Of a DNA stretch of 64,000 nt, positions 3,948 to 29,046 are shown piece after piece. The DNA is from a virus. Location: positions 1 through 64,000 of IMG/VR virus record IMGVR_UViG_3300042154_000876; one strand, 5' to 3'. The position numbers and the translations under genes are program-made. The notes under the pieces are model-generated. The model was given only the letters and a program-made list of their open reading frames with translations, was not told the origin of the DNA and searched no databases. Position 1 is the first letter of the stretch; each line of letters starts with the position of its first letter.

Positions 3948-6020
3948 ATGAATCCAGAAGGACCAGACAACTACAGCAAGGAAGGGTTGGCGCAAAAGCT
4001 CGCCATGCTTCTTGGCACCACGGTTGTTGCTCAATATATGGCCCACGGCTACCACTGGAACGTCAAGGGGCCTGAGTTCACTCAGTTCCACGACTTCTTT
4101 GGTGAGATCTACGAAGATTGGGCAGGAGAAGAAGACCGCATTGCTGAGTACATCCGCATTGTTGGCTATGACGCTCCACACTCACTGCAGGAGTTCCTAG
4201 CACTAGCGTGCCTAGACTCTAAGCCATCTGCTGGCAACCCAATGGAGATGGCAGCTAACCTCTACGAGGCAAACATCGTTCTCCACAACTGCGTTGAGGA
4301 TATCTTCAACCTAGCAACCGCAATCGGCATGCAGGGTATCGCAGACTGGGCCGCAGGCCGCATGGATGCACACTCGAAGTGGTCTTGGAAGATTGGAACC
4401 ACCATTGGTGCTGACTCCATGCAGATCCAGACTCTTGATATGGGAAAATCTAAGGCTGGAGTTCTTCTAGAAGTAGTTGACAACGATAACGATATGTCAC
4501 TACCAGAACTTCAGCCTACCCCTGAGTCGATCCGCCTCTCGCTGCTTGCAGCTGGACACCTAGTTCCAGAAGAAGCAGACCTAGCCCAAGCCCTCATTGA
4601 GATTGCCGACAAGTACGGCAAGTTCGACGAGGACAACACCGGCATTTGGGCAGACTACCATGAAGCAAAAGACAACCCTTACGCCGAGATGGGCGTTAAG
4701 TGTGGGAACTGTGTTTTGTATCGCGGCGGTCAGGAATGTGCCGTAGTTGCGTTTGCAGTTGAGCCAGAAGGGTACTGCCGCTTCGCGGTTCTACCTGACG
4801 GCACTGTTGACCCAAGCAAAGCACCAAAGAACGAGCCATACAAGCACGACCACGAGATGCTACCTGGCGAGTTCTCTGGCGGAGCAGGTGCCCCGGCAGA
4901 AATCCTCGACATGAGCAAGGTAAAGAAGCCTAAGGCTAGCACTCTACTTGCTGATGCTGACTACGGAGGCGAATGCCCTCCTGCAACCCAGGACATTGTT
5001 CTAAACATCAAGAACCGCCAGAAGGCGATTGACGGTGTTGGCTATGGCCCACTAAACCCAGCCGAACCTAATGAAGAGTTCTGGCAAGACAAGGCTGACC
5101 GTTGGGACATTGACCCAGCTGAAGCCAAGAAGAGCATCTGCGGTAACTGCGTGTTCTTCGACCGCCGTCCAAAGACCCTAGACTGCATCGAGACTGGCCT
5201 AGCCGAAGGTGGCTCTGGCGAGCAAAGTGCTTGGGACTCAATCGACCAGGCTGAGCTTGGCTACTGCACCGCCCTTGACTTCAAGTGTGCTGCTAGCCGT
5301 ACCTGTAACGCCTGGGCAGCTGGCGGCCCCATTACAGAGGACGTCCAGAAGGAAGAGTCCGTAACTGCCACCGCCGGATCAAAGCCAGCACCAAAGAAAG
5401 ACCAAATCAAGGGCTCTAGCAAAAACAAGAAGGGTTCGGCAGCCACCGGACGCAAGGTAAACTTCTCCGCTGCCGTTGAGAAGTCTCTAAAGGAAAAAGT
5501 CAAGTCCCACAACGAGAGCGTCTCTGCTGATGGCAAGAAGGTCACCCTCTCTATGCTCAAGGCAGTTTACCGCCGTGGCGCAGGTGCGTTCTCAACTTCC
5601 CACCGCCCAGACCAGAACCGTAACTCGTGGGCCATGGGCCGCGTTAACGCATTCTTGCACCTAGTTAAGTCAGGTAAGCCTACCAACGCTAAGTACACCA
5701 CCGACAATGACCTACTGCCAGATGCACACCCTAAGAGCACTAACAGCAGCACATCCTTGACCGCATCGGCCTTTGCGGAACGCGAACTTTACATTGAACT
5801 CAGCGACGAGAGCATGTATGAATCTCCAGAGCAAGCCTTAGTTGCAATGGCAGAGTACTCGGGACTAGGATATGAATCTATTCCAGTTTTCCGTGCCGCA
5901 TGGCGTCGCGGGGTGGCTAACAACGAGTCAGCTTTTGACAGAGCGGCTAGACTGGCTATAGACCTATACAACAGCGAAGATTCGGATCTACTACCGAAGC
6001 AAGAACAGGAAGACTGGTAA
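3948..6020 (+). CDS. Multi-domain head-associated protein: N-terminal Dps/ferritin domain, two Cys-rich domains, two VYRRG/DLLP helical domains
   Basis: Dps signature HGYHWNVKGPEFTQFHDFFGEIYE...DRIAE. Cys domains CGNC..C..GYC (4701-4784, HiPIP-like spacing) and CPPATQD..CGNC..GYC..C..C (4971-5315). Then VYRRGAGAFSTSHRP..WAMGRVNAF..DLLPDAHP. Confidence 0.75.
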   Translation: MNPEGPDNYSKEGLAQKLAMLLGTTVVAQYMAHGYHWNVKGPEFTQFHDFFGEIYEDWAGEEDRIAEYIRIVGYDAPHSLQEFLALACLDSKPSAGNPMEMAANLYEANIVLHNCVEDIFNLATAIGMQGIADWAAGRMDAHSKWSWKIGTTIGADSMQIQTLDMGKSKAGVLLEVVDNDNDMSLPELQPTPESIRLSLLAAGHLVPEEADLAQALIEIADKYGKFDEDNTGIWADYHEAKDNPYAEMGVKCGNCVLYRGGQECAVVAFAVEPEGYCRFAVLPDGTVDPSKAPKNEPYKHDHEMLPGEFSGGAGAPAEILDMSKVKKPKASTLLADADYGGECPPATQDIVLNIKNRQKAIDGVGYGPLNPAEPNEEFWQDKADRWDIDPAEAKKSICGNCVFFDRRPKTLDCIETGLAEGGSGEQSAWDSIDQAELGYCTALDFKCAASRTCNAWAAGGPITEDVQKEESVTATAGSKPAPKKDQIKGSSKNKKGSAATGRKVNFSAAVEKSLKEKVKSHNESVSADGKKVTLSMLKAVYRRGAGAFSTSHRPDQNRNSWAMGRVNAFLHLVKSGKPTNAKYTTDNDLLPDAHPKSTNSSTSLTASAFAERELYIELSDESMYESPEQALVAMAEYSGLGYESIPVFRAAWRRGVANNESAFDRAARLAIDLYNSEDSDLLPKQEQEDW

Positions 6021-6022
6021 GC

Positions 6023-9000
6023 GTGAGCAAGCTAATCGATCAATTTGACAGCAACTTCGAGAACGAAGGGGGAATCCGCCACGCTATCGTTGACATCATT
6101 GAGTCACGTCGCGCTGAGATCCCTGCTATCCGTATGGTTGAAGAGGAAACTCTTTTCCAGGTTGCTGAACGTGCGTTAGAGTCAAACACTGATCTTGAGC
6201 CAGATGTTCGCTACTTTGCAGCACTTCGCGAAGTAACCAACTTCATTACGTTTGCTACAGAAGGCGCGATCTCGGACATTGTTACCAAGCACGCTGACCT
6301 ACTACCTGCTAGCCACCCAAACTCAAAAGAGTCGGCAGTTATGACTGCTTCGGCTCAGCGTATGCTACGCGCAGAGTGGCTTGCAGCTGACCTACGCATC
6401 ACCGACGAGAACGTTCGCTCTATTGTTGCAGCTGTTTACGCAAGCAACCCACTTTCCGTTGACTACGCCTACCACCTATCACGCCTAGAGAGCCTAGAAG
6501 AAGGTCAGGTTCCTGCTGACCTACTAATCCAGCCTCTACTTGCTTTTGGTGACCCATACGCAGGAAAGAACAGCTTCTGGCACCGTTCGATGCGTGCTAA
6601 GAAGCAGCGTCGTGACGATGAGGGTCAGTTTGCTGAAATGGGTGGCGGCTACCGCTTCTACGTTAGGGACCTACGCGGTCGCGTATTCTCTGTTGTTGGT
6701 AAGGTCGCTGGTATCCCAGAAAACGACCCTCTAGGCATTGACATTGAAGTTATCGGCGTTGAGGGTATCCGTGACGGCATTTACACCATTCCTGCCGCCG
6801 CTGGCCACTCCTTCAAGGCTATTCTTCCGGAGCACGCTGTATCTAAGCGTATTCGTATTTCTGGCGACAACCTAAACGCTATTGACCTATCTTCACTAAC
6901 TCGTAAAGAACTTCCTACTAGCTGGTTTGCAACCAAGGGCTCAAACGACAAAACTGACCTCGACAACAAGGTTAAGGCTGACCGTTTCTTCGCCACTGGT
7001 GACGGCTACATTGCTAACCTATACAACAAGCCTGACGAAGAGCTAGGAAAGCGTATCGCTGAAGCTCAGAACAAGTTTGGCGCTCTTGTAGTGAGCGACC
7101 AGGGTACCGACACCCTAAACCCAGACAAGCCTGTCTACGAACTTATCTCCACCAAGCGCGGACAGCCAGAAGTTGTTGGCTATTCTCAGGACTGGGCCGC
7201 CCTACAAAAGTTTGCGTCTGACGAAGACGAAAACTACCCAGAGGCCGAGAATGAGCCTCTTGCAGTTGAAGAAAGTGCCGCCAAGAAGCCTAAAGAGGCT
7301 CCTGCAGCAGCTCCGGTCGCACCGGAGAGCATGGACGAACTTGTTCCTGACCTACCTTCCTACAACCCTTCAGAGAATGTGCCTGCTACTTGGTATGACA
7401 ATGGCGACAACACCTTCTACTCTATTGACGGTAAGTACGTGGCTAAGTTTGGGCCTACTGACATTGCTGCAGATTACGTCTACTCCTATGACCCATCATC
7501 CGGTCAGGAAGGCCTGCTCCCTACGGGCGCAACCGTTAGTGATGCATTTGCTATCTATAACACCGACAACGGCTCTGCTGTTGGAGGAGTGTCTTTCGAC
7601 TGGAATGGCGTATCTGACGCCATTGACTCTGTTGACCAGGTCGAGGAAATGGCCTCACCTACCAAGCTTGACCCTGAGAACCTAGACCCAGACCGCGCCA
7701 AGTACATCGAACCGGATGCCAATGTCGGTGGAAGAGCCGGAGCAAACGACCCTATATCAGATGCACAGAAGCGCAGCATTTATGCCGCTATTGGTAAGCA
7801 CGAGGTAGCTGGCGGTATCGCTGACATCTGGGATGAAATGGTTGCAAATGACTGGCAGGGATATACCTTCGCTAATGCTATGACCTTGCTCATCAAAATC
7901 AACGAATCTCCTGAACGTCCAGGCGGTTGGGTTAAGCCTGCTCAGATCTACCACCGCAAAGCAATGCGTGACTCTCTTAGAAACCGAGATGTTCCAGAAG
8001 AAGCTAAGAAGATTCTTCTAGAGAGCTACAAAAGCATGGGCGAAGCTGAGATTAAGGCCCAGATTACTCTAGTAAACACCTTCCCGGCCATCACTCCAGA
8101 TCCTAGAGCAACGCTGGACGGAGACCGCAAGCCTATTGTGGCCCCAGTTAAATACGAGCCCGGAACTGTTAACGCCGAGACAGCAAGGATTCCTAAACTT
8201 CAGCCGGCAAATGCTTACCCTAACAAGTACCCACCGCGTGCCCAGGGCGTCGACCGAGACGGTAAGGCTTTCTATCCTCTACTAAACGACTTAAAGGGTG
8301 CCTTCAGCTCTAAGAAGGTTTCGGAAGACATGGTCATTCTATTTGATGACATGCTTACCCGTCCTTCTGTCTATAGCTACAAAGACTACGGCGCGTTTAT
8401 GGATGTCCTAAACAAGCTAGAACCTACTGAAAAGAAACTAGCAACGACCGCTACCCGCGCCCTGGTTGACACCATGATTGGAATGTCTAAGGACGTACCA
8501 GGTGACCTACAGGAGAAGCTAAAGGGCCGTCGTATGATGGACCATGATGAGATCAACGCTCTCATCACTGAGCTAGTTCCTTACGTACCAGAATACGAGA
8601 AGATTGCTGGTCGTGCAAAGACAGCACAAGAAACAGCTGAGTCGAAGAACCTATCCTCGGCTACTCCTAAGTATCTCGGAACAGACCTAACTGCTGCGCA
8701 GTCGGCACCTAAGCCTATGCAGCTAGTTATGCTTGAGTCCTTGATTGAAAACAAAGACTTCTCTGACCCTGCAGCTAAAAAAGATCTAGACACTCTTATT
8801 GCAGAGCACCGCACTATGCCGTATCCTCTGATTCAGAGCTACATCAAAGAGTTCCAGCAGCTACCATATAAGGCTCAGTTTCAGCCTAATATGCTGCACA
8901 CCACTATCTCTAGAGAAGATGGTGGACCTACCCCACGTATGCTACGTTCCCTGGAGCGTTCACGTATCAAGGGTCTTATTGGAGACGAGGCTTGGAACGA

Positions 9001-12000
9001 GATCACCAAGAACGTTCCTACAATGCTTGGCCAGGATGTTGCCACTAGGTACATAATTTCCGCTAAGGATCTAGAAGACAAGTATGACGACGCAGTCCTA
9101 GCTCGAAGCATCGAAAACGGTTACGAGATCAATGGCCTACGCGTTCCTGCTAAGTCTACTGTAACTATTCCAGAGAACTATACCCCCTCTAAGCCTGGAG
9201 TTTGGCTAGGAAGCACCGAAGACGAGATTAATGCTCAGCTTGACCTATACGGAGCTACCAAGGCTGACTCTGCACCTAGCAGTGCCATGCTTAACGCTCT
9301 TAAGGGCCTAAACTCTGTTCTTAAGATCAGACAGTACGAGTCTACCCTTGAGGCCAACGACCTTGACGACTTCCTTCAGAGAGAAGTTCTTCGTGCTGAC
9401 CTAACACGTACCCGCCGTGCATTGTCGGGCGTTGCAGCGCAGCTTGCTGATCTGCTAGAGTCTAGCCCTAGCACTGCTGTAAAAGCCGACTCTGCCAAGA
9501 TCCTCCGAGGAGCTATCGAAGGTCTTACAGACCTACGCTCTGTTCTAAACCTAAGACGCACCAACGTGCTTACCAAGAAGGAAGTAGACAAGCGTCTATC
9601 CGACATAGCGATCGCTATTCTTCCTGGAGACGGATCGCCTAGCCCACTGGGCACCCTAAAGAACAAGACCCCGGAGGCCTTGGAAGTTCTAGCCCGTGCT
9701 CAGGCGGCAGTTGGATCTCTTATTGGCCTATACAAGCAGGGTGGATCTGCTCCGATAGACCAAGACGCTGTTGAAGAGTCTTCGTCCAGTAGAAAGCCTT
9801 CTATGAAGTTCTTCTACCCACCTACGTTTGCTGGCGAGGGCCTTGACCCACTACGCGGTATGAGCAACTACAACGATGTTATCCAGTTCCTAAAGAACAA
9901 CGACATCTATGTTCTCGATCTTGAAACAACTGGACTAACTGATCTAGATGACTTTGAAATCAAGAATGATCCTATCCAGATCGCTGTTACCAAAATCTCT
10001 GGCCTACAGGCTGTAGACTCTTTCACCACCTACATCAACCCTCAGTCTAAGATCAGTTCTTATACCCTAAAGAACGTTGGAGACGGTAAGGGTGGACGTG
10101 TCACCCAGGAGTTCCTATCTGGCTTCCCTACTAAGCGAGACACTATGGCTCAGCTTAAAGAGTTCATTCCAAATGGCGCTATTATTGCTGGACACAACTC
10201 GACTTTGTTCGACATGGAAGTTATCAACCGCACTATTGCTGAAGCTGGTCTAGAACCTCTAGAGCCTTCAGGCATGATTGATACTCTTGGTTTCGCTCGC
10301 TACATCATGCCTGAGTGGACGCCAGAGAACCCTGACGCTCCTTTCAAGATCAACGCCCGCGGTGAGCAGACCAAGTCCTTCTCTCTTGAAGCTTTGGTCA
10401 CCTACTTCGGTCTATCGAACAACGGCCGTCACGAAGCTGACGCCGACGTTAGCTCGACCGTTGAAGTATTCCAGAAGATGCTTGACCGAGCCTCTAGAGG
10501 TCTTGCTGTAGGCGGACGAGAGTTTAGCTACGACGCTTCTGACAACGACTGGAACTACGACGCCTATGTAGCCGCTGAAGAAGCATATAAGCAGGCATCT
10601 AGCGAGTACATCCTTGGCCGTGTTGGCGACATCCTATCCCTTGAGGGAATGAACCCTGAAGAGATTAACTCTCTCATTACCTCTATGATTAACAACATTC
10701 AATCTGGAGTAACCTCAGGGCAGGAACAGCCAAGAAGCGAAGCAAACGTCCCAGCAACTAACCCACTGCGGGACCTACCTGCTGGCTCTTACGTTCACGA
10801 CAACGCAACTGGCCGCGCTGGTATCTCTATGGGTATCGTTGGAAACCACGTTCTAGTTGACTTCCCTGCTGCCTCTATTCTGGCTAATGGGCTTCGCACG
10901 CTGGAGAAGGTTCTCCCGGAGTCCCTAGTTAACGCCACCCGCGACTTCCTAAGTGCTAACGGAGTCTATCTAGACTACGGCATGCAGGTAAAAAACCCAG
11001 ACCTACCTGGCGGCTACGGATATGTACTAAGCCTATCCGGCGACAAGGGTGGAAACATCTACGCCGGTTCTGCAGACTACGCAGCTCAGTTCCCAGCCAA
11101 GAGCCTAGAGGTGGTGCCTACAACTGTCGCAGACGATAAAGCCTCTGACAAGCAAGAGGCTCGAATCATCAACCTAGTTGATGAGGTAGTTTCTGCTGGA
11201 ATTATGGATAAGGCCATGGCCCTACCATTCCAGCGCGCCGCTGAGAACCACCTCTACGGTAAAAAGTCAGCTGGAGACGTTATTATGCGTCTTACCACGG
11301 CGCTAAACCAGTTTAGACAGCACGCTGCCAATAGCGACATCCAGGTTGAAGCCGGCGAGAATGCAGCCTCTCAGATCGAGGAAATGGCCGCGCCTAAGAA
11401 GCCAAAGGATACTAAAAAAATCGAGGACATCGAGTTTAGTAAGGCATTGGAGAAGGCGCTCAAGGAGCTTGACATACAGCCTACCCCTGAAGGCAGAAAC
11501 ATTATTGGTTCAGTTATCAATAACTTCTTCACCGCAGTTATGGCCCTTGCCGGTGTTGGTAAAACTACCAACCTACGCCTAACAGCTGAGGCTATTATGA
11601 GCCTCTTCCCTCAGATGAGAATCCTATACGCGGTATTCAACAAAGAAAACCAAATGGAAGCTTTGGAGAAGATGCCAGATAACACAGAGGCTAGAACCTC
11701 TGACTCTATCAGCGTTATGGCCAACGCCAACAATAAACTACGCGATAAGATGGACGCCTTATCTAAACAGGATGAACCTCACAACATGCCTGTTAACTTC
11801 TTCAGAGAAGCAGATATCGCTGATCTATTCGGTGTAAAGGATGTCACCCTATCTACAGGAAAAGATGTACCTCGCGAGCGCGTAGCCGGAATCGCATCTG
11901 CTGCCTTACGAGCATGGATTCTATCCGATTCTATGAAGATTGATGCCAGTACTATTGACGCAATCTCCAGCCAGTTGAGTGAGAAAGAGATGCCTCAGAC

Positions 12001-15000
12001 AGCCGAGGACTACCGACCATTTATCCGACTTGTTCAGATGATGTGGGACGATGTTATTTCTGACCACGACCAGGATCGACGCCAGCTAGTAGTCAACTTC
12101 AACCACCTATTCAAGAACTGGGCACTTACTCGCCCTGACCTGACTGAAGTAGATGGTTCTGGAAAGAGCATTCACGGTCTTAAAAATGTCCCTGACTTCC
12201 TTTTCCTAGACGAAGCTCAGGATATTAACCCAGTATTCCGAAAAGTGATCGAAGACCAGTATACCCTTCACAAAAACGGTATTGTTATGATTGCTGTTGG
12301 CGACAATAACCAGGCTATCTTTGGATTCCGCGGAGCAGAAGACGCTCTGAATATTGTAAAGCGAGACCTAACGCTACCTCTAACTAAGAGCTACCGAACT
12401 GGTCAGACCGTTCTAGATGCCGCTGCTAACAAGCTGCTAGCGATGCTAGGAGAGTCGTTAAGACTACAAGGTAAGGATGGTAACGGCACTAAGCTTGTTG
12501 ACAATATGTCGCGAGAGAGGATCGATCTAGCCCTATCTCGAGGAACCGCCGCGATTCTAAAAGAAGCGATTGTGGTCGAGGAGATGTTTGAGGGAGGTAG
12601 AATCGCTACCACCCTGAACTTCAAGCAAGAGCTACTAAACATGCTTAAAGCGATGACTTACCTACAGCGCGTGGACTACGTCAACTATGCCAACGCTGAG
12701 GCACGTAAGAATGATCCAAATGCCGCGCCGATATTGCCACCTAAAAGACCTACAATACCTGGGGCATTGCTGGGCCTAAACTGGGAAACCATGTATGAGC
12801 TTCTGTCTGAAGGTAAGGGTGACCAATCTATTCAGCAGATTTGGAATGTTATCCGCGGTCACGCTAGCAAAAACAAAATTAAAATCGGGCCAGCAATGTC
12901 TGACCTACTGAACAACATTGTTCCTAACCTTCGAGTAGTTAATCACGAGTTCCACCTTCCAGCCCAGCTAGATCCGATCGGGTCTCTCGGTGGAGGATTG
13001 GACTACGAGATTACAAAGGATAAGATTATTATCCGAGACGACCCATCCGCGGGCTTTAATGCTCGTAAGACGGCCATTAGCGGTGTCTACAATAACCGCA
13101 AGGTTCTCGAGGACTACGGGTTCTGGAACCCTAGCAAGGATCAGGCAACTGGACGATACGGTGGATTTGAGTGGGAAATCAACCTATATGACGATGGGCG
13201 TGATCAGTTGCAGGACCTTGTCAAGGGTCTTCGCGGTGAGGACGCCATGTTCCGCATTATGACTGGTCACACCTCAAAGGGTCTGGAAGCCGATAACGTC
13301 AAGATTCTAGATGACTGGCTAGACCTAACGCCGTTCCTACCTGGTGGAGATGCTGAAAAGCAGAACGAACTGCTAGAACTGTTCCGCTCGCGTGGTCCAG
13401 ACTTTGATCTTATGGAAGAGATCCGCTTGATGTATGTAGTCACTACTCGACCACGCACTGAACTTGATTTAGGTGGTTTGAAGTGGTTAAACAATCACTC
13501 ACCTGAGCAACTTAAGGCTGCTGTTGATGAGATCCAAAAGCGACTAGCTATGGGATTCGGCGCAGTTGAGGAGGGCGTAGAGGTTAAGTCTCCAGAAGAG
13601 ATTGAAGCCATCAAGAACCGACCAACTGGCGAAGATCTTTCTGGTCTACCTCCACGCACCGACTGGGAGGCAGAAAAAGCAGCAAAAGAGGAAAATAGTT
13701 GGAGGCTCAAGAACACTGAGGAGAGAACTAAGGAAGAGATTGGAGAAATCCCTAGGGATGGAAATCTTCCACTCAAGCCACGCTCCCGCGACAACGCTGA
13801 ACTAGCCAAGTTGAAGGAAGAAAGGCGAGAGCTCGTCAGTAAGATTGCTACCGCTAAGAGTAAGGGCAAGGAGCCTAGCAAGGCCACCGAGCAAAAGTTA
13901 GCGGATGTAAATCAGAAGATTTCTGACATTGAGAATGCTGACAGTGTTGAAGAGTTTTCATCTAAAAAACGTCCAAGCTCTCCTAACTACCAGGATGAGT
14001 TTGATCGAAAGGTTGATGGTCTAAAGGCCGCTATTGCAACCGCTAAGGACATTCTAAACCTTGTGCCTGAAGACCGAACCGGAGACTTCAAGGGCTATGC
14101 TGACACCAACATCGAGGAAACTATCGCTGGACTACAAGAGGACCTAAATGCTCTGCTTGACAACCCAGACATGCTGGAGCGTGATGACGAGGAAGACTAC
14201 CGCATTGCCGAGCGTCTACTGGCTAAGCTGAATGCAGATAAGATGGCTAAACTAGACATGGGCGATCTGATGGATGCTCGTCGCATTGTGAAGAACAAGA
14301 GCGACATCACCGGAACTGATCAGAGCTTTGTCTATGGCACTACCCCACCTGTGTACCTCAACCGAGTAATGCTAGACGCACTAGAGAAGATGAAGGACCA
14401 CCTGTATCGTAAGCTGAAGCACGACGAGAAGCTAGACTTCGCTCCTTATGTTTCGGACCAGGTCGAAGAGTCATCTTCTCCGGTAGAGAATATCTCTCCA
14501 GAGATGGAAAAGAAGCTCTACAACATTGTTGAAGAGGCTGCTAAGTTCTACAGCGACCGCTTGATGAACTTCAATGACCCAGGTGCGACCGAGGCAAAGA
14601 AGTACGTTGTATCGCGAGGATTCGGTGCTGCCAACGCCGAGACCTTTAAGATTGGATACTCTTCGAAGAACTGGGCTGACCTATATCAGCACCTACGTCG
14701 CAAGGGATTCTCTGAAGAAGAGATCTTAGCCTCGGGACTAGTCAACAGAAGCGAAAACAACGGACGACTATTTGATGCCTTGCGCAACAGACTAGTCTTC
14801 CCCGTTAGCAACGACAAGGGCCAAGTGGTTGGTTTTGTTGGACGCTCGATTGACCCTGAAGAGCCAATCCGCTACATGAGAACCAAGGGTACCCCGATCT
14901 TCCAGAAGTCGAGCACCTTGTTTGGTCTAGATCAGGCTAGGGATGCAATCGCTGAGTCAGGCGAGATGGTTGTTGTTGAAGGTCAGTTTGACGTTCTAGC

Positions 15001-15514
15001 AATGCACGCTGCCGGCATCAAGAATGCTATTGCTGCCTCGGGAACCGCATTCGGTGAGGGCCACATGGACCTATTCAACCAGATTGTTGGTGACAAGGAA
15101 AACAAGAGCGTAGTGTTTGCTTTCGACCCAGACGAAGCCGGAATTAAAGCAGCTGGAAAAGCGTACATGATGTTGACCCAGTCCTACTTTGATGTCGCGC
15201 CTTACATTGTCTCTGATGAATCTGGACTAGACCCTTCTGACATTTACTCAAAGGATAACGAAAACGGTCTTAAGACTCTGATGGATAACAAGCGCCCAAT
15301 GGCTGAAGTTCTGATCGAAAGACTTCTGTCTAGTGGTAGAGAGCTTAGCGATATCCGCGACGCTATCATTGCAATCCTGATGAATGTCCACGACACTAAC
15401 CTACAGACCCAGCTAGTTCAGCGCTTCGGCCCTCAGCTTGGTGGAGACATGGGCGAGCTGTTTGCAGAGGTTAGAATGTATGATCCTAAGCGGAACGCTA
15501 AATACAACATCTAG
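6023..15514 (+). CDS. Giant polyvalent protein A (3163 aa): N-terminal module, DEDDh exonuclease, UvrD-like SF1 helicase, DnaG primase core
   Basis: Uninterrupted ORF from a GTG start 2 nt after the upstream stop. Catalytic motifs are listed in the domain features. Confidence 0.85.
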   Translation: MSKLIDQFDSNFENEGGIRHAIVDIIESRRAEIPAIRMVEEETLFQVAERALESNTDLEPDVRYFAALREVTNFITFATEGAISDIVTKHADLLPASHPNSKESAVMTASAQRMLRAEWLAADLRITDENVRSIVAAVYASNPLSVDYAYHLSRLESLEEGQVPADLLIQPLLAFGDPYAGKNSFWHRSMRAKKQRRDDEGQFAEMGGGYRFYVRDLRGRVFSVVGKVAGIPENDPLGIDIEVIGVEGIRDGIYTIPAAAGHSFKAILPEHAVSKRIRISGDNLNAIDLSSLTRKELPTSWFATKGSNDKTDLDNKVKADRFFATGDGYIANLYNKPDEELGKRIAEAQNKFGALVVSDQGTDTLNPDKPVYELISTKRGQPEVVGYSQDWAALQKFASDEDENYPEAENEPLAVEESAAKKPKEAPAAAPVAPESMDELVPDLPSYNPSENVPATWYDNGDNTFYSIDGKYVAKFGPTDIAADYVYSYDPSSGQEGLLPTGATVSDAFAIYNTDNGSAVGGVSFDWNGVSDAIDSVDQVEEMASPTKLDPENLDPDRAKYIEPDANVGGRAGANDPISDAQKRSIYAAIGKHEVAGGIADIWDEMVANDWQGYTFANAMTLLIKINESPERPGGWVKPAQIYHRKAMRDSLRNRDVPEEAKKILLESYKSMGEAEIKAQITLVNTFPAITPDPRATLDGDRKPIVAPVKYEPGTVNAETARIPKLQPANAYPNKYPPRAQGVDRDGKAFYPLLNDLKGAFSSKKVSEDMVILFDDMLTRPSVYSYKDYGAFMDVLNKLEPTEKKLATTATRALVDTMIGMSKDVPGDLQEKLKGRRMMDHDEINALITELVPYVPEYEKIAGRAKTAQETAESKNLSSATPKYLGTDLTAAQSAPKPMQLVMLESLIENKDFSDPAAKKDLDTLIAEHRTMPYPLIQSYIKEFQQLPYKAQFQPNMLHTTISREDGGPTPRMLRSLERSRIKGLIGDEAWNEITKNVPTMLGQDVATRYIISAKDLEDKYDDAVLARSIENGYEINGLRVPAKSTVTIPENYTPSKPGVWLGSTEDEINAQLDLYGATKADSAPSSAMLNALKGLNSVLKIRQYESTLEANDLDDFLQREVLRADLTRTRRALSGVAAQLADLLESSPSTAVKADSAKILRGAIEGLTDLRSVLNLRRTNVLTKKEVDKRLSDIAIAILPGDGSPSPLGTLKNKTPEALEVLARAQAAVGSLIGLYKQGGSAPIDQDAVEESSSSRKPSMKFFYPPTFAGEGLDPLRGMSNYNDVIQFLKNNDIYVLDLETTGLTDLDDFEIKNDPIQIAVTKISGLQAVDSFTTYINPQSKISSYTLKNVGDGKGGRVTQEFLSGFPTKRDTMAQLKEFIPNGAIIAGHNSTLFDMEVINRTIAEAGLEPLEPSGMIDTLGFARYIMPEWTPENPDAPFKINARGEQTKSFSLEALVTYFGLSNNGRHEADADVSSTVEVFQKMLDRASRGLAVGGREFSYDASDNDWNYDAYVAAEEAYKQASSEYILGRVGDILSLEGMNPEEINSLITSMINNIQSGVTSGQEQPRSEANVPATNPLRDLPAGSYVHDNATGRAGISMGIVGNHVLVDFPAASILANGLRTLEKVLPESLVNATRDFLSANGVYLDYGMQVKNPDLPGGYGYVLSLSGDKGGNIYAGSADYAAQFPAKSLEVVPTTVADDKASDKQEARIINLVDEVVSAGIMDKAMALPFQRAAENHLYGKKSAGDVIMRLTTALNQFRQHAANSDIQVEAGENAASQIEEMAAPKKPKDTKKIEDIEFSKALEKALKELDIQPTPEGRNIIGSVINNFFTAVMALAGVGKTTNLRLTAEAIMSLFPQMRILYAVFNKENQMEALEKMPDNTEARTSDSISVMANANNKLRDKMDALSKQDEPHNMPVNFFREADIADLFGVKDVTLSTGKDVPRERVAGIASAALRAWILSDSMKIDASTIDAISSQLSEKEMPQTAEDYRPFIRLVQMMWDDVISDHDQDRRQLVVNFNHLFKNWALTRPDLTEVDGSGKSIHGLKNVPDFLFLDEAQDINPVFRKVIEDQYTLHKNGIVMIAVGDNNQAIFGFRGAEDALNIVKRDLTLPLTKSYRTGQTVLDAAANKLLAMLGESLRLQGKDGNGTKLVDNMSRERIDLALSRGTAAILKEAIVVEEMFEGGRIATTLNFKQELLNMLKAMTYLQRVDYVNYANAEARKNDPNAAPILPPKRPTIPGALLGLNWETMYELLSEGKGDQSIQQIWNVIRGHASKNKIKIGPAMSDLLNNIVPNLRVVNHEFHLPAQLDPIGSLGGGLDYEITKDKIIIRDDPSAGFNARKTAISGVYNNRKVLEDYGFWNPSKDQATGRYGGFEWEINLYDDGRDQLQDLVKGLRGEDAMFRIMTGHTSKGLEADNVKILDDWLDLTPFLPGGDAEKQNELLELFRSRGPDFDLMEEIRLMYVVTTRPRTELDLGGLKWLNNHSPEQLKAAVDEIQKRLAMGFGAVEEGVEVKSPEEIEAIKNRPTGEDLSGLPPRTDWEAEKAAKEENSWRLKNTEERTKEEIGEIPRDGNLPLKPRSRDNAELAKLKEERRELVSKIATAKSKGKEPSKATEQKLADVNQKISDIENADSVEEFSSKKRPSSPNYQDEFDRKVDGLKAAIATAKDILNLVPEDRTGDFKGYADTNIEETIAGLQEDLNALLDNPDMLERDDEEDYRIAERLLAKLNADKMAKLDMGDLMDARRIVKNKSDITGTDQSFVYGTTPPVYLNRVMLDALEKMKDHLYRKLKHDEKLDFAPYVSDQVEESSSPVENISPEMEKKLYNIVEEAAKFYSDRLMNFNDPGATEAKKYVVSRGFGAANAETFKIGYSSKNWADLYQHLRRKGFSEEEILASGLVNRSENNGRLFDALRNRLVFPVSNDKGQVVGFVGRSIDPEEPIRYMRTKGTPIFQKSSTLFGLDQARDAIAESGEMVVVEGQFDVLAMHAAGIKNAIAASGTAFGEGHMDLFNQIVGDKENKSVVFAFDPDEAGIKAAGKAYMMLTQSYFDVAPYIVSDESGLDPSDIYSKDNENGLKTLMDNKRPMAEVLIERLLSSGRELSDIRDAIIAILMNVHDTNLQTQLVQRFGPQLGGDMGELFAEVRMYDPKRNAKYNI
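9900..10490 (+). other. DEDDh (DnaQ-like) 3'-5' exonuclease domain in giant A
   Basis: ExoI LDLETTG (D at 9917), ExoII GHNSTLFD, IDTL, ExoIII HEADADV. Confidence 0.85.
11480..13480 (+). other. UvrD/Rep-like SF1A helicase domain in giant A
   Basis: ALAGVGKTT, VFNKE, LDEAQD, VGDNNQAIFGFRG, LTKSYR, TGHTSKGLE, MYVVTTR. Confidence 0.85.
14500..15330 (+). other. DnaG-type primase catalytic core (Toprim_N + TOPRIM) in giant A, no zinc-binding domain
   Basis: YVVSRG..FKIGYS, DALRNRLVFP..GFVGR, VVEGQFDV, GTAF, FDPDEAG, DPSD. No CHC2 zinc finger upstream. Confidence 0.85.
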
Positions 15515-15564
15515 CCCCTCAGGTTTATTGGTATACTTGTAAAAGACTAATCAATCGCGATAGT

Positions 15565-15619
15565 TACCCCGTTAATTTGACAACTGCTAATTGACGGGGT
15601 ATTATCAAGGTGTTACGTT
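15565..15619 (+). promoter_or_regulatory. Tandem sigmaA-like promoters overlapped by a 13-bp inverted repeat
   Basis: TTGACA (15577-82) -17 nt- TATTAT (15600-05), and TTGACG (15591-96) -17 nt- TACGTT (15614-19). Inverted repeat TACCCCGTTAATT (15565-77) / AATTGACGGGGTA (15589-601). Confidence 0.7.
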
Positions 15620-15634
15620 TCTATAAGGACCAGT

Positions 15635-15898
15635 ATGAAAATCTTTGTTGACACCCCCGAGGGCGGAAGCCTCGTTGAGATTGAAGTCTCCACACTAGAA
15701 GATGACAGGCTAAACACGCTTGCCGCATCTGGATCTAAAGAAGCGCGCGACGAGGTTAAAAAGCGTACCGGTATGGATCCATATAAGCCTGTTTCTGAGC
15801 ACACACCCGAAGACGTCGAATACTACATGGAGTGGTTAAAAAATAACGACTCTGAAAAATACAATAAAATTGTAGGTAGCGATAAGGACGTTGAGTAG
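15635..15898 (+). CDS. Small acidic protein, paralog of the next gene
   Basis: 87 aa with an AAGGA RBS. Shares GG..L.D..LN.L...G..EAR.....RTG.DP.K......PED......W...N..EK..K with 15903..16187. Confidence 0.75.
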   Translation: MKIFVDTPEGGSLVEIEVSTLEDDRLNTLAASGSKEARDEVKKRTGMDPYKPVSEHTPEDVEYYMEWLKNNDSEKYNKIVGSDKDVE

Positions 15899-15902
15899 GA
15901 CT

Positions 15903-16187
15903 ATGGAAGACAACTACGAAGAATACCAAGTAGACATGCATGTCATCACTGCTAGTGGTGGCAAGGATTTGAAGTTCCAGCTTAAGGACCTTACCGACGA
16001 GGAGCTTAATCAGCTCTATGAAGAGACTGGACTAGAAGAAGCCCGCCTCGCTTACCGCGAGCGTACCGGTGATGATCCAGCTAAAAACCTATGGATCTAT
16101 GGACCAGAAGACTTTGCGTGGTTCCAGGACTGGTGTGACCGCAACCCAGAAAAGTTTGAGAAGTTGCGAGCCCAGTATGACGTTTAG
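15903..16187 (+). CDS. Small acidic protein, paralog of the previous gene
   Basis: Likely ATG at 15903 (MEDNYEEY); the ORF track uses TTG 15891. Aligns with the upstream ORF. Its stop overlaps the start of giant B. Confidence 0.75.
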   Translation: MEDNYEEYQVDMHVITASGGKDLKFQLKDLTDEELNQLYEETGLEEARLAYRERTGDDPAKNLWIYGPEDFAWFQDWCDRNPEKFEKLRAQYDV

Positions 16188-19100
16188 CCCACTATTTTTC
16201 GAAGACCCAGAAGAGCCTATCGTTGCCGCTGCTCTAAAGAACGGCAAGGAGTGGGGCTACTGGGCTGACATGCAGCTACGCGATCCAGGAGGAGAGCGCG
16301 GCGGTTGGTTCATCGAGATGGGTGGCCTTAACCTATTCAATGGTATGGGCAAGGACGGAAAAGTCCGCGCCTACAAGGGTAAGTACATCGGCCCTTCTCC
16401 GCTTGGTCAAGGCTACGGTCGATTCCTAGTTGAAGGCGGAGACGGCGTTGACCCCGGTATCTACCACGTAAACGTATCCAACATCGACTCCGTTAAGGGA
16501 GTTCTTAGCGAAGAATATCTACGCAGCCTGGGTCGTGACGTTCCTGCTCAAAAAGAAGGTATCGTTGACCTATCCAAGACTCGCATTGACCCGATAACTG
16601 AGCAAGACCTACAAGACGCCAACATTGAGCCGGACAAGCCTAAGAACCTCAAGAAAGCTGCCAACGACCGCGGTCAATCAGCTAAAAAACTAAAGGACCT
16701 AAAAGACGGCGACATCCTCTACGACGAGGGCAACAAGCGATTTGGCGAGGTCGTTTCTACCGTAGATAAAGATGGAAACTTTAGCCCGTGGGTTAAATGG
16801 GAAGACAATCAGATTTCTCAGATTCCTAACGCTGACCCAGAAACCGAGACCGCCGTTTGGGCAGCTCCAGCTCCTGAAGTTGATGAATCGGCAGCCCCTA
16901 AAAAGACCGTAAAGGGTAGAGACCTCAAGGTCGGAGACGTAATCCGCGCTTGGGACGAAAACCGCACTATTACGGCGATTGAGCCAGGGCGTGGGGGGGA
17001 GCGTTACTTTATTTTTGACACTCCTGATGAAGGAGAAGACGGTCCTGATGGAAAGTTTATCAACATCAATGAGGACGTCGAGCTTGGCCGAGAAGAGGCT
17101 CCAGTCGCCCCAGCCGCCCCTGTTGCTGCCGAAAAAACAAAATCTAACAAAGTTTCTGCCTCTGAAGTTAAAAAAGGTGACTCTGTTGTAATCAACGGAG
17201 AGACCTATACGGTTTCTAAAAAATCTAACAAAAAAGCTGATGGAGTGGTTATTGGCCACAAGATTGAGTTTAGGGCCGAAGACGGCAGCACTTTTGAAGA
17301 AGAGTTCCTTTCAGACGACACTCTAGATATTCCTGCTGCAGAGACAGCAACAAAAGAAGAGAAGAAGACTCCGCGTGGGGTTCTCACTAGTTTTGTGAAA
17401 AACATGCAGCCGGGGGATGTTCTTATTGCTGGTAAAGACGATAAGCGTCAAGAGGTGCTTTTTGTATCTGCTGAACCTATACCTCCAGTAGACAATAATG
17501 ATATTCGCAAACGTTATAATATTACAGTTCAACGTGCCGACGGTGGGCTTGAAACTATTGCAGTTGATGCTACGAATGGTATCCCGCAGTTGGCTGAAAC
17601 TAATGCCAAAGGTAAAACTGAAAAGGTAAACCGTAAGGACCAACTTAAAGTAGTTCCATCCGCTCCTGCCACTACAACTACTAAAACCACTCGGACCACC
17701 ACAAAAACTGCAGGTGACGAGGCCGGAACCACTACAACTACCACCCCGAGGGTTCGAGCACCTGAAGTAATCCCAACAACTCCGATGTCCACCAATCCAG
17801 GTGACACCGGAGAAGTTGTTAGGGGCGTCAACTACGAAATAATGCCTGACGGAAGAATCAAGTTTTCTCGCGGGCGTCTTAAAAAGGGTAGCCGGTCGTA
17901 TGACTTAATTACAAAGGTTTTACCAGGCGAGATAACTAGATCTGGTAACGGAAAAGCTTTCGCATTTTTTGAAAAGCCAGAGGGTGGGGATTACGGAAAC
18001 TGGTTTGTAAGATTCGAACCGATCAAAGATTCTAAAAAAGATCTGGCTAAGCAGTTTCTCGACAGCCTCCGTGCCGGCATGGCTAAGGAAAAGGTAGAGT
18101 CTTCTGAGGAGACCGGCTCATCCTTCTCTGGGGCTAAGAACACCAAGGGCAGCATCACTGATGCCGCGTCCTATGAGGTCGACGAGAACGGTACTGTAAA
18201 GATTTCTGGCCTAACCGAAGAACAGGTTGACCTTGTTGTTCAGGCTATGTATACGGTTCAGGGAACCACACCACTTGACCGCCCTGGAAGCGTTTCAACC
18301 AAGGTTGACTCTGACAAAGATGAAGACCGCGCCGCTGTTCTAAAGGCTGTTAGTGATGCTCTTGGTGGAACTCCAGCTGCTACAACTACCACTACCACTA
18401 CTACCCCGGACTTTGACTCCTTACCCAAGACAAAAGCTGACCCGGAGGCGGCTCGTAAGGCCGGGTTTACAGTAGACAATGTAAAGCCAGTAGATATTCA
18501 AGTTGGAGACTACATTATCAGTCCAGTGGGGTACTGGACAAAGGTTGTTGGAGAGCCTAGTATAATTCCTGATCCAAGGAACCCAGGCGAGATTGCGTGG
18601 GCTATTCCTACTGAAAACTACAAGGGAGAGAGGTTTACTCAAGACGGTTTGGGAGACCTGAACCTAAGGATTGATCGAGTTCGTGGACCTAACCACGTAG
18701 ATACGCCAGAAACTGCAGACGAGGCTTTTGATAAAGAGTCCGCTCCATTCCCTATGGACACCCTGAGGGATTTAAAAGAAGGCATCTATGCCAAAGTCGA
18801 CGGCATGTGGAAAAAGATTACCAAGGTCGGTAAGCCTCAGATAGATCCTAGTGTCGATACTGAATCCGTTGTAATAGAGTTTGAAGATGGGACAAAGAAA
18901 AGGGTAGACGAGCGAGACGGCCTTACTTTAGTCCGTAAGGTCCCTGAAGGTGAAGCCACGTCCACAGCGACAACCACCACTGAAGGTCTGACTACCGATC
19001 AAAGGCTGGCTAAGCTTTTATTCTTAGTAAAGGGTAGCGGTTCCGAGGACGCGGCTTGGAATGCATCCATAATGGGCGATGCTAGAAGATCTCTTGAAGC

Positions 19101-22100
19101 TGCTGGAATTGATGAAAATGATTTCCTAGACTATGCAGAAAAGTCCGGGGCCTCAGATCTGCGTCAACCTGATCTAGATAAGCTCATTGAGAAGTATAAA
19201 GCTGATAAGGGCTCTACCACAACCACAGCCACTACCACTGAAGAGTCCGACAAGCCTACCGACGAGCAGCGCAAAACTATTGACGACCTTATCGCTCAGA
19301 TTGGCGATGAAACCAACTTTACGTCTAAGATTGTCACGGCGATGTTGGATAGCCTTACTAAAGAATCTGCAGACATGGCCATCGACATGCTTAAGGCTGC
19401 GATAGCAAACACTACAGCCCCTACCACCACAACCGCTCCTGCTCAGTCGGTATTCACACCTGGCCAGATTGATAGCGTTAACCGCCGTATAAACCTACTA
19501 ACTCCGGAGCAGCAGGCTAAGGTTAAAGAGGCTATGGAGTCCGCCACCCCTAAAACCGCTAAAGACATTATGTCTAAGATTATCAACACCCTAGATAACG
19601 CTGAAATCATTAGCCGTATCCGTAAGGGAATGCCGGTTGATGACATTTTAGCCAGGCGCAAGACCGACACCGTAGGAGCTAACCTACTATTCGATCTAGA
19701 CCGCTCTCCTAAGGAGATCGCTCAGAGACTTGCCACCTACAAACCAACCGTTAACCTAGACGGTACTCCGATTGCGGACGCTCAGCAAACTACCACTACA
19801 GTTTCAGGAGATGACACTAAGTCAGTATCTTCTCTAATATCTGACGTAATAGATTCTCTTGCTAAGGATCTGCAGACTAAGTTTGGAGCCCTAAAGTATA
19901 GATACAGCTCCAAGACTCCACAGAACGCCGAGCAGGCAGAAAAAGATCACGAAATCTACCTAGAGTACTTGTCTACGGTTGTCCCTGCCGTTATGCAGGC
20001 CCTTAAAGAGCGTCTCGACAGTCAAACAGCCGCTGGCAACCCTGACGCACAGAAAAACTATGACGACGCCGTAAGTAAGCTGAAGCAAGAACTTTGGGGA
20101 CAAAACAGGGGAGCTGTCTACACCAGCGAAGCCGAAAAGCTTGTAGGCAGCGATCGAACAAAAGAGATGTCTGATGAAGCCAACAAGGCTCTTAATGATC
20201 TACTAGCTGGAGTCAAAAAACCCGAGAAGCAGGTAACTACTGAAACTACCACTAAAGACACTTTCGGAAAGATCGGCACCTCCGGTAACCTAACTGGAAA
20301 CGTTGACTACTCGATTGATAAGTTCGGCCAGATCGCTCTGACCAACGCTCCTGAAGACTTTGACGCTAGAATGGCGGAGAGTAGGGGCCTCATTATTGTT
20401 ACTGACAATGGTAAAAAGTCCATTGTCCTAACCAAAAACAACGATGAAAATCGAGCCGCTGCCCTTAATCTCATAAAGGAGCGTCTAGAAGGACCGGCTC
20501 CGGTCACTACAAAGGTTGAAACACAGACTGAAGTAGCTCAAGATGTGGTAACCGGTCAAGAGCGACCAGAAGGTGGCGTCTCAAAGAAGATTTCTGAGCT
20601 GAACGTCGGAGACCGTTTATACGATGAAGAGACCGAATCCATGGCCACCGTTGTCGGTGTCTATGAGGACCCAGACCGTGCTGGCCGCATCGTACTTACT
20701 ATCCGATTTGACGACGGTCGAGAGGACTCTGCTTCATATAAAAAGTCGTACGTCGTTGAGGCCTATCCTTCGCCAGAAGCACCAGCCGCAACTACCACCA
20801 CCGCTGAAGATGTGGTCGGTGGCGAGGATGCGGACACCTCTAAGACAGAGGCCGAAGTCGTTGAAGACTCTCAGGTTATAGTAGAGCAGGGTGAGTCTAC
20901 CACCGCTGAGCCAGGTTCTACTGTTTTAGAAGAGCCAGATGCCGAGGCCGTTGAGCCTGTAGAACCTAAGCGTAAGCCTAGGGGGCCTCGTAAGCCTAGA
21001 AAAGTAAACCTCTCTGATGTATCAGATGAAGAGCGCGAAGCATTCATTCGTATTTTTGATGCCCTAGAAAACTTCAACCGAGTTGAGGAAGAATATGGCG
21101 GTAAGAAATATGATTCTAAGTGGTATATCGACGAGAAAGACCGCAAGTTCGATAACAAAGATGTAGAGGAGCTTGCTTCTCAGAATACCAAGGGTATTGG
21201 TGAAGACCTAGGTATTCAGTTGATGGACTCCACTACGGACGCCTATGAGCCAGGGGCATTCTCGAGTACTCGTCAGCCGACTCCAGGAGCATTTACCGGC
21301 CGAGTTGCGCGCATGGTTGAAGGCAAGACCAAAGCAGAGACTCGCAATATTCTTAAGGGCCTAAAGGTTTCGTGGTTTGATACTGAAACTACAGGAATCT
21401 CTAACTTTGATGGTGACCCTACAAATAATGATGTGGTCCAGGTAGGTATTGTAAACACTCAGAATGGTGAGGTCCTAGAGCGCCTAAACATCTACATCAA
21501 CCCTGGTGTAGAGGATGGGGTCCGACTAGGCAAGTGGGCCACAAACAACTTAGTCAAAGATGCAGTTGGCGAGGACGGTCAGCCTATTCTGGGACCAGAC
21601 GGCAAGCCAACAACCGAACCAATCACCAACGAGTGGTTATCGGAGCAGATGTCTATTGCTGACGCTGTTCAGCAGATCATGGACTTCATGGGTCGCGATC
21701 CGATTCTTGGCGGTCAGAACGTTCCGTTTGACCTTCAGGTTCTCCAGCGTATGTTGGATAAGGCTGGGGTTAGGGGTTACCGCATCGGTGGAACCATTGA
21801 CTCTAAGGACCTATCTGAAGAGTTCCTACCTAAGTACAACGAGTACGAAGGAACTGACGGACCTAAAAGGTTTGATAAAGAGCGTAACAAGTTTGTGCCT
21901 ACCTCTAGCCTAGGCTACGTAGCCGAGTTCCTGGGATTTGGTACTACGCGTTGGCACTCAGCCGATGCCGATGCCGAAGACGCTTGGAAACTTGCTTCTG
22001 CAACTATGGACCGTGCAGCGTCCGAGGACCCAACGGGAACTAGCGATTTGATGAACCAAAGCGCCATGAGAAGTCGTTATACAGAACGTATGGCTAAGTT

Positions 22101-28953: not shown

Positions 28954-28976
28954 CAAAATAACAGCAACATCAATAC

Positions 28977-28987
28977 TGATACAATAG
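28977..28987 (+). promoter_or_regulatory. Extended -10 promoter upstream of the protease gene
   Basis: TGATACAATAG, identical to 913-923, in the intergenic gap. Confidence 0.5.
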
Positions 28988-29046
28988 ACTCACGGCTATT
29001 AAATCATATGCCTCTGTTTTTTATGCTCCGTCGGAGGAACTTATAG

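Follow-up and report, generated by a model that had tools for sequence, protein, structure and literature searches.

The head block and its two giant proteins

This study concerns a protein module found in two giant proteins, here referred to as giant A and giant B, which are encoded by an uncultured, actinophage-like virus. The DNA analyzed comprises positions 1 to 64,000 of the IMG/VR virus record IMGVR_UViG_3300042154_000876 (the 64,000-nucleotide window) and is part of a 75.6-kb viral record with a completeness estimate of about half. The closest named relatives are the Actinomycetia phage DSL-LC01 and the ~190-kb Microbacterium phages Zooman, Pumpernickel, Cece, Big4, and A3Wally. A head block at positions 2156 to 39203 holds the genes for a portal, a post-portal protein, giant A, two small open reading frames (ORFs), giant B, a protease-scaffold protein, the capsid protein, and tail/adaptor proteins. 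The giants and their module copies are listed below; structural features come from AlphaFold2 (AF2) models, for which the predicted local distance difference test (pLDDT) and predicted template modeling (pTM) scores are given.

6023 to 15514, plus strand: giant A, an ORF for a polyvalent protein of 3163 amino acids (aa) with a DEDDh exonuclease, a UvrD-like helicase, and a DnaG/Toprim primase (Pfam RNase_T, UvrD, DNAG_N, and Toprim)
6023 to 6526, plus strand: helical N-terminal domain of giant A (aa 1 to 168), which lies ahead of the module in A-type proteins (AF2 helices, pLDDT ~85)
6527 to 6940, plus strand: module copy of giant A (profile E 3.5e-39; N-type-only profile E 1.4e-30)
6531 to 6592, plus strand: predicted disordered linker of giant A with P-L-L-A-F-G (LLAF at 6536, aa 172; pLDDT 36 to 41 for aa 170 to 190)
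6605 to 6646, plus strand: core motif of giant A, QRRDDEGQFAEMGG
16177 to 28953, plus strand: giant B, 4258 aa, with an exonuclease, a PIF1/RecD helicase, and two zincin-like HExxH sites recognized by eye
16201 to 16641, plus strand: module copy of giant B (profile E 1.1e-32; A-type-only profile E 1.4e-12; AF2 pLDDT 83.4, pTM 0.72)
16219 to 16233, plus strand: IVAAA, an h-x-A-A motif (h, hydrophobic) at aa 15 of giant B and 18 aa ahead of the core (pLDDT 59, probably disordered)
16273 to 16326, plus strand: core motif of giant B, QLRDPGGERGGWFIEMGG, with a 4-residue loop insert
16306 to 16497, plus strand: SH3/Tudor/KOW-like small beta barrel of the B module, aa 44 to 107 (AF2 pLDDT >90)

Both giants contain several unrelated enzymatic domains and are encoded between the portal and protease genes, and they fit the class of "polyvalent proteins" described by Iyer et al. 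(PMC5512222). The Pfam matches in giant B are RNase_T and PIF1, and a ParB-like motif was recognized by eye only. Giant B most likely starts at position 16177, with an ATG overlapping the stop codon of the ORF before it, and its module therefore lies at the extreme N terminus.

Both giants carry homologous copies of one module

An earlier reading of this DNA from its letters and ORFs (the sequence-only reading) had claimed that the two giants open with the same module, and this claim is borne out. All of the motifs that it quoted are present where it had placed them: QRRDDEGQFAEMGG at 6605, QLRDPGGERGGWFIEMGG at 16273, QRRNTGGRF at 30100, QPRDIEGRF at 33061, LLAF at 6536, and IVAAA at 16219. 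In the ~140 aa of the module, a disordered h-x-A-A/G stretch comes first, followed by a short helix, then by the near-invariant core Q-x-R-D-(x)n-G-x-[FW]-x-E-M-G, and finally by a small SH3/Tudor-like barrel. The shared beta domain that the sequence-only reading described is thus real, but its size, given as ~100 aa, was not, as the barrel covers ~60 aa within the ~140-aa module.

Pairwise identity of the A and B N termini is 31 to 34%, and their alignment is significant, with a BLASTP E value of 2e-4 over 74 aa at 34% identity. A non-circular cross-profile test was also performed, in which profiles were made solely from other phages' modules, either those of the A type or those of the N-terminal type (N type). 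The A-type-only profile finds giant B at an E value of 1.4e-12, and the N-terminal-type-only profile finds giant A at an E value of 1.4e-30. Besides giant B, the sole other match of the A-type-only profile in the window is to aa 325 to 365 of the protease protein (E 6e-4). A strict 9-mer pattern, Q.R[DN]..G.[FW], occurs three times in the 19,685 aa of window gene products, versus 0.0125 occurrences expected from shuffles. Judged by these sequence comparisons, we regard the homology of the A and B module copies as confirmed.

The module defines a large viral protein family

When 1.84 billion representatives were searched with a profile built from ten module copies, the search yielded 391 proteins at an E value of ≤1e-3 and 195 at ≤1e-10, the majority of them 1000 to 5400 aa in length. 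Among the best 150 of the 391, the module starts at or before aa 25 in 88 proteins, between aa 150 and 200 in 56, and elsewhere in six. One metagenomic protein of 5432 aa (P0075) has three copies, at aa 171 to 262, 312 to 413, and 950 to 1051. The consensus reads P-l-v-A-x-a-G-G-N-S-x-A-A-R-x-x-R-A-x-x-Q-x-R-D-R-x-G-R-[FW]-A-E-M-G-G-G and is followed by the barrel. Across 150 members, the Q, R, G, [FW], and G positions are 99 to 100% conserved, the D position 92%, the M position 91%, and the upstream Ala 89%.

In IMG/VR, a degenerate DNA pattern representing the core identified at least 118 viral loci; among the matches listed, 119 of 119 were in frame in long ORFs, and 118 matched the whole-module profile. 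Applied to 596 Gb of prokaryote genomes, the same pattern gave 17 matches, 3 to 4 of them genuine and located on short contigs of metagenome-assembled genomes. The family is viral and apparently not prophage-borne. Almost all profile matches fall in the portal-to-protease head block of viral contigs, in agreement with the expectation of the sequence-only reading that they would be confined to head-module genes.

The module had no consistent match in Pfam or PHROGs, none below an E value of 0.28 in a sequence search of the PDB, and no usable match in the ESM Atlas, and a word-indexed homologue search returned only 3 close orthologues. Phage_Mu_F (PF04233) had no match in giants A and B, in 57 module sequences (E ≤ 1), in the 75.6-kb record, or in DSL-LC01 and Zooman, although a very remote homology is possible.

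The predicted fold is a helix followed by a small beta barrel

The AF2 model of giant B aa 1 to 160, built from a 57-sequence alignment (pLDDT 83.4, pTM 0.72), begins with a stretch of low confidence in which IVAAA is located, continues with a helix at aa 23 to 32 and with the core as a loop or hairpin (pLDDT 72 to 80), and then forms the barrel. When compared by VIA-align with many Tudor, KOW, and SH3 chains, the barrel gave Z scores of 5.0 to 6.1 and root mean square deviations of 2 to 3.5 Å over 51 to 70 residues, which is the range of common arrangements. Foldseek searches with the module model against the PDB and BFVD gave no match at an E value of ≤1e-3 (E > 0.01), and a search of the PDB with a model of the N-terminal 545 aa of giant A likewise gave none at this threshold. 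In the latter model (pLDDT 76.8), the helical domain (aa 1 to 168) and a disordered linker (aa 170 to 190) precede the module, and an alpha/beta domain (aa 300 to 404), a second disordered linker that includes VEESAA (aa 408 to 443), and a beta domain ending at VEEMAS follow it. With its ~140 aa and a confidently predicted barrel, the module is not a short, unfolded peptide of 10 to 30 aa of the capsid-targeting sequence (CTS) kind.

The helix of A-type copies is strongly basic (consensus NSSAARRARA.LQRRDRKGRF). A role for this helix as a general DNA binder was considered and ruled out, because N-type copies are without the basic residues.

Short forms of the module recur in the protease-scaffold protein

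29047 to 33549, plus strand: protease-scaffold polyprotein, 1500 aa (phrog_18402 head maturation protease, E 3e-57; weak Peptidase_S78)
30028 to 30126, plus strand: MTAAG...YSPEERS...QRRNTGGRF, a degenerate copy of the N-terminal ~35 aa of the module (A-only profile E 6e-4, aa 325 to 365)
33061 to 33087, plus strand: QPRDIEGRF, a second short motif near the C terminus (QPRD..G.F[RK].[VI]LA[RH]L in homologues)

The short motif had been said to recur twice in the protease protein, and homologues corroborate both occurrences. Motif 1, at 30100, is degenerate in the window and clear in ~13 retrieved homologues, where it reads Y-[TS]-P-E-E-R-S..A..Q-V-R-D..G-[RK]-F-A..G-x-R-V-V-x-G-G-D and is preceded by an h-x-A-A-G stretch. 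In these relatives it leads into a ~50-aa beta segment (G.RVV.GGD...V.V.LDSG..V.VP), so that the whole corresponds to a diverged full module; in the window, a Ser/Gly/Ala/Gln-rich low-complexity sequence (30127 to 30190) takes the place of this segment. Motif 2, at 33061, is conserved in relatives. In DSL-LC01 the protease protein is split into three ORFs, each annotated as "capsid maturation protease," and motif 2 lies near aa 30 of the last one, which encodes 183 aa. The protease protein of the window thus has short module forms of ~35 aa and 9 aa, and their recurrence reflects either homology or a shared functional peptide.

Gene order, constraint, cargo, and descent

2156 to 3934, plus strand: portal gene at the start of the head block (phrog_776 portal, E 7e-102)
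3948 to 6020: post-portal protein, 690 aa, with a Dps-like start

The gene immediately ahead of the module-bearing gene encodes, on the same strand, a portal homologue (40 to 94% identity) in 86 of 115 viral loci. Of the 115, 84 contain the post-portal protein, and the protease protein was found downstream in 16, where the locus extends that far. In 71 of the 115, the module follows sequence resembling the N-terminal domain of giant A. With a gene directly downstream of the portal gene in these 86 loci and a module at or near the N terminus, the carriers occupy the position that MuF proteins normally take. The post-portal protein provides a third type of carrier: in DSL-LC01 and several contigs it opens with the module itself, and in other contigs (L090 and L117) a post-portal homologue is fused ahead of the module. 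The copies in DSL-LC01 are on a 466-aa post-portal protein annotated as "cytoplasmic protein" (16793 to 18193) and on a 3289-aa giant (19425 to 29294).

Among ten orthologues of giant A, the most conserved 50-aa segment covers the core motif, with a mean pairwise identity of 73% versus 29% overall, and its conservation equals that of the exonuclease active-site region. Beyond the module, the carriers differ widely: 73% of carrier pairs share no similarity outside it, and in nine other carriers the cargo has no Pfam domain or only NUDIX. Single-linkage clustering of the cargo was also tried and was uninformative because of domain mosaicism.

A tree of the module resolves an A clade (56 A-type and 13 N-type copies) and an N clade (65 N-type copies and 1 A-type copy), with about 7 to 10 switches. 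Since these clades mostly track the A- and N-type positions, the giants are best described as old paralogues that have retained the module and not as recent recipients of a mobile tag.

Candidate cleavage motifs flank the module and separate the enzymes

7265 to 7282, plus strand: VEESAA, the first linker motif after the module-bearing fragment of giant A and a candidate cleavage site (predicted disordered, aa 408 to 443)
16879 to 16896, plus strand: VDESAA, the first linker motif after the B module and a candidate cleavage site

Two kinds of short motif may mark processing sites. The first, VEE[SMF][SA], lies between domains and occurs six times in giant A (7265, 7640, 9770, 11375, 13946, and 14462) and five times in giant B (16879, 24193, 25624, 26665, and 26959), where a looser sixth copy, QVSESSAPKK, is located near the C terminus. 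Orthologous giants have 4 to 6 copies of a variant of their own at equivalent interdomain positions, such as VD[RK][RK], IVD[RK][MK], I[ILM]K[KR], QEMA[ST], EID[KR]M, and others. From the sequences, this covariation looks like the pattern expected of cleavage sites that evolve together with a cognate protease.

The second kind, h-[TVA]-A-[AGS]-[GAPS], is overrepresented in the protease protein (11 observed versus 0.94 expected) and in the capsid protein (4 versus 0.64, including VTAAA at aa 240). It lies 18 to 21 residues ahead of the core in giant B and in the protease protein, and giant A has the variant LLAFG at the same spot. In the protease protein, the sites at aa 499 and 1280 are within ~35 residues of the points at which the protein is split into separate ORFs in DSL-LC01. 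The two candidate cut sites that flank the A module both fall in stretches with a pLDDT of <50. Candidates for the cutting enzyme are the S78-like prohead protease and the putative zincins of giant B, and zincins have been proposed as processing enzymes of polyvalent proteins by Iyer et al. (PMC5512222).

Other features of the head block

33681 to 35720, plus strand: major capsid protein with a long, acidic N-terminal extension, at the end of the head block (phrog_777, E 7e-82; translation)

The N-terminal extension of the capsid protein comprises ~230 aa (33681 to 34400); it begins like a coiled coil and includes a very acidic stretch rich in Glu. This extension may act as a scaffold arm built into the capsid protein and is a candidate partner for the basic helix of A-type modules. 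The post-portal protein starts with a Dps/ferritin-like domain (phrog_3636, E 2e-19) and toward its C terminus is similar to the N-terminal domain of giant A. The giants are separated by two small, acidic ORFs of 87 and 98 aa (15635 to 16187), and the start of giant B falls within the second of these. Poly-Thr linkers are numerous in the N-terminal third of giant B (16900 to 21500), as are short repeats resembling small beta domains (K.GD.....G.......V), for which Pfam gave no match.

Discussion

The data presented here define a protein module that is shared by the giants of one virus and by several hundred related proteins. We propose that it is a procapsid-docking unit that loads the giants, and in its short form the protease-scaffold protein as well, via a common receptor and that the loaded giants are then cut, retained, and delivered with the DNA; we put the probability of this reading at roughly 0.5. 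Under this proposal, the module would anchor giant polyvalent proteins at a shared site inside the assembling procapsid, for which the portal, the scaffold-protease core, and the acidic N-terminal arm of the capsid protein are candidates. Once packaged, the giants would be cut at phage-specific linker motifs (VEE[SMF][SA] in the window) into separate enzymes, which would remain in the head and enter the host together with the DNA. Packaging, the docking partner, cleavage, and ejection are all steps that we infer, and the case for capsid loading is circumstantial, built on position, synteny, constraint, and the candidate cleavage motifs that flank the module in predicted disordered linkers.

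Several observations weigh against this proposal. Every carrier comes from a single phage lineage in which the portals are related, and the synteny may therefore simply be inherited and is not independent evidence. Likewise, because the module copies form mostly two old paralogue clades, the shared start of the giants could reflect an ancient duplication combined with any conserved function. In A-type proteins, the module sits behind a 170-aa domain and is not N-terminal, and the barrel, with Z scores of 5 to 6, appears from the model to be a generic fold. If the h-x-A motif is a prohead-protease site, the module would stay on the mature fragment and would not be a tag that is removed. In addition, our literature search found no experiment or virion proteome for any carrier.

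A broader version of the proposal, which we regard as possible and put forward tentatively, is that the Q-x-R-D..G-x-[FW] core is a portable docking peptide for one procapsid receptor that loads all internal components (giants, post-portal protein, protease, and scaffold) in a large, mostly uncultured actinophage lineage. The sequence-only reading had likewise seen the module as an address label for otherwise different cargo. The significant alignment, the confinement to the head block, the fixed position at or near the N terminus, the differing cargo, and the motif in the protease protein all speak for a label of this kind, and we regard this interpretation as partly supported; the tree shows mostly two old paralogous lineages and not a freely shuffled tag.

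It is conceivable, though in our view unlikely, that the module serves protease recognition instead of docking, with the h-x-A-A/G stretch and the core, ~18 to 21 aa apart, acting as a substrate site and a docking exosite through which the prohead protease would be directed to the giants and the protease polyprotein. This would account for the enrichment of h-[TVA]-A-[AGS]-[GAPS] in the protease and capsid proteins, for its occurrence ahead of the core in giant A, giant B, and the protease protein, for its location in a disordered linker, and for the sites at aa 499 and 1280 near DSL-LC01 ORF boundaries. However, one subfamily (the L035-L037 type) begins at the helix and is without the h-x-A stretch, the second motif of the protease protein has no adjacent h-x-A, the linker motifs of the giants themselves are of a different kind, and the conserved barrel would be left unexplained.

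We consider it quite unlikely that the module is a retained functional domain of the mature protein and not a loading signal, for example a tether that holds the giants at the portal channel or the DNA end and sets the order of their ejection into the host, or a binder of a host target. Such a role would be in keeping with the frequent binding of nucleic acids or peptides by SH3/Tudor/KOW-like barrels, with the strongly basic helix of A-type copies, and with the possibility that the module persists after processing on an N-terminal fragment of 240 to 550 aa. Set against this, the basic helix is not kept in N-type copies (for example, GANKGFWRIQ.RD, and also the copy in giant B of the window), the motif is also found in the protease-scaffold protein, for which no ejection is expected, and cutting at the first linker motif would part the module from the enzymes.

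Equally doubtful to us is the view that the shared start of the giants is no more than a legacy of one giant gene having been duplicated long ago, with the module a structural domain that has no part in targeting and to which the protease-protein motifs would be unrelated. The division of the tree into an A clade and an N clade and the presence of a DEDDh exonuclease in both giants agree with such a history, but the rest of the two proteins has diverged beyond recognition while the core residues are 91 to 100% invariant in 150 representatives. A legacy would also sit poorly with the third type of carrier, the post-portal protein, with the protein that has three copies, and with the profile-detected copy in the protease protein, upstream motif included. 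A chance resemblance of the two N termini, which a pairwise identity of merely 31 to 34% might suggest, can be dismissed, as it is refuted by the cross-profile E values of about 1e-12 and 1e-30 and by the 391 family members.

The proposed docking role has parallels in known systems. Giant internal proteins with an N-terminal capsid-targeting element are known as a concept, as described for T4 IPIII and P1 DarB (PMC9024508), and polyvalent proteins have been predicted to be packaged (PMC5512222). P1 DarB, a very large (250-kDa) DNA-enzyme protein with an N-terminal element, is packaged in the head and believed to pass into the host, and its first 30 residues suffice for loading a reporter (PMC9024508). 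Its signal is shorter than 30 residues and has no consensus among Dar proteins (PMC9024508), whereas the module described here is folded, comprises ~140 aa, has a near-invariant core, and occurs on several proteins of hundreds of phages, with a putative loading role. The CTS of T4 IPIII is an N-terminal address on internal head proteins that lies beside a prohead-protease site and is cleaved by gp21, and the cargo is trapped in the head and ejected; it is ~10 aa long and removed, whereas the present module is a far larger domain that lies behind a 170-aa domain in half of its carriers and whose removal would have to be supposed.

MuF domains (as in SPP1 gp7) on polyvalent proteins resemble our module in that the gene lies right after the portal gene, the element is N-terminal, and incorporation into the head is presumed (PMC5512222). 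Phage_Mu_F is absent from the giants, the record, and the two complete relatives, and our module is a helix with an SH3-like barrel; it appears to be an unrelated family that fills the place of MuF. Phages of the phiKZ/SPN3US type also have large head cargo, with many internal proteins that are cut by the prohead protease at short recurring motifs. The cleavage motif of these phages is of the S/A/G-x-E type. Their cargo consists of many separate proteins, in contrast to the 3000- to 4000-aa polyproteins with phage-specific linker motifs and a shared N-terminal module found here. A literature search on the motif and on the cultured relatives found nothing relevant, and the libraries and papers searched contain no description of the family, of the fold and near-invariant core that characterize it, of its breadth, or of its deployment on several head proteins.

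In summary, we describe a sharply defined module with a near-invariant core that is present in ~400 protein clusters. Giant polyvalent proteins that travel in the capsid are regarded as the opening strike of a phage on host defenses, and the entry of such 300- to 470-kDa proteins into the capsid is understood for few model phages only. Since cultured relatives exist (Zooman, Pumpernickel, Cece, Big4, and A3Wally), the question is directly testable. The covarying linker motifs constitute a natural system for the study of protease-substrate coevolution, and a positive result could yield a protein-loading tag for actinobacterial phages. If the tentative view of the core as a portable docking peptide is true, the core would be a general, transferable loading tag with which multi-kilodalton cargo could be delivered to Actinobacteria, acting jointly with a two-motif processing code made up of the h-x-A motif and phage-specific linker sites.

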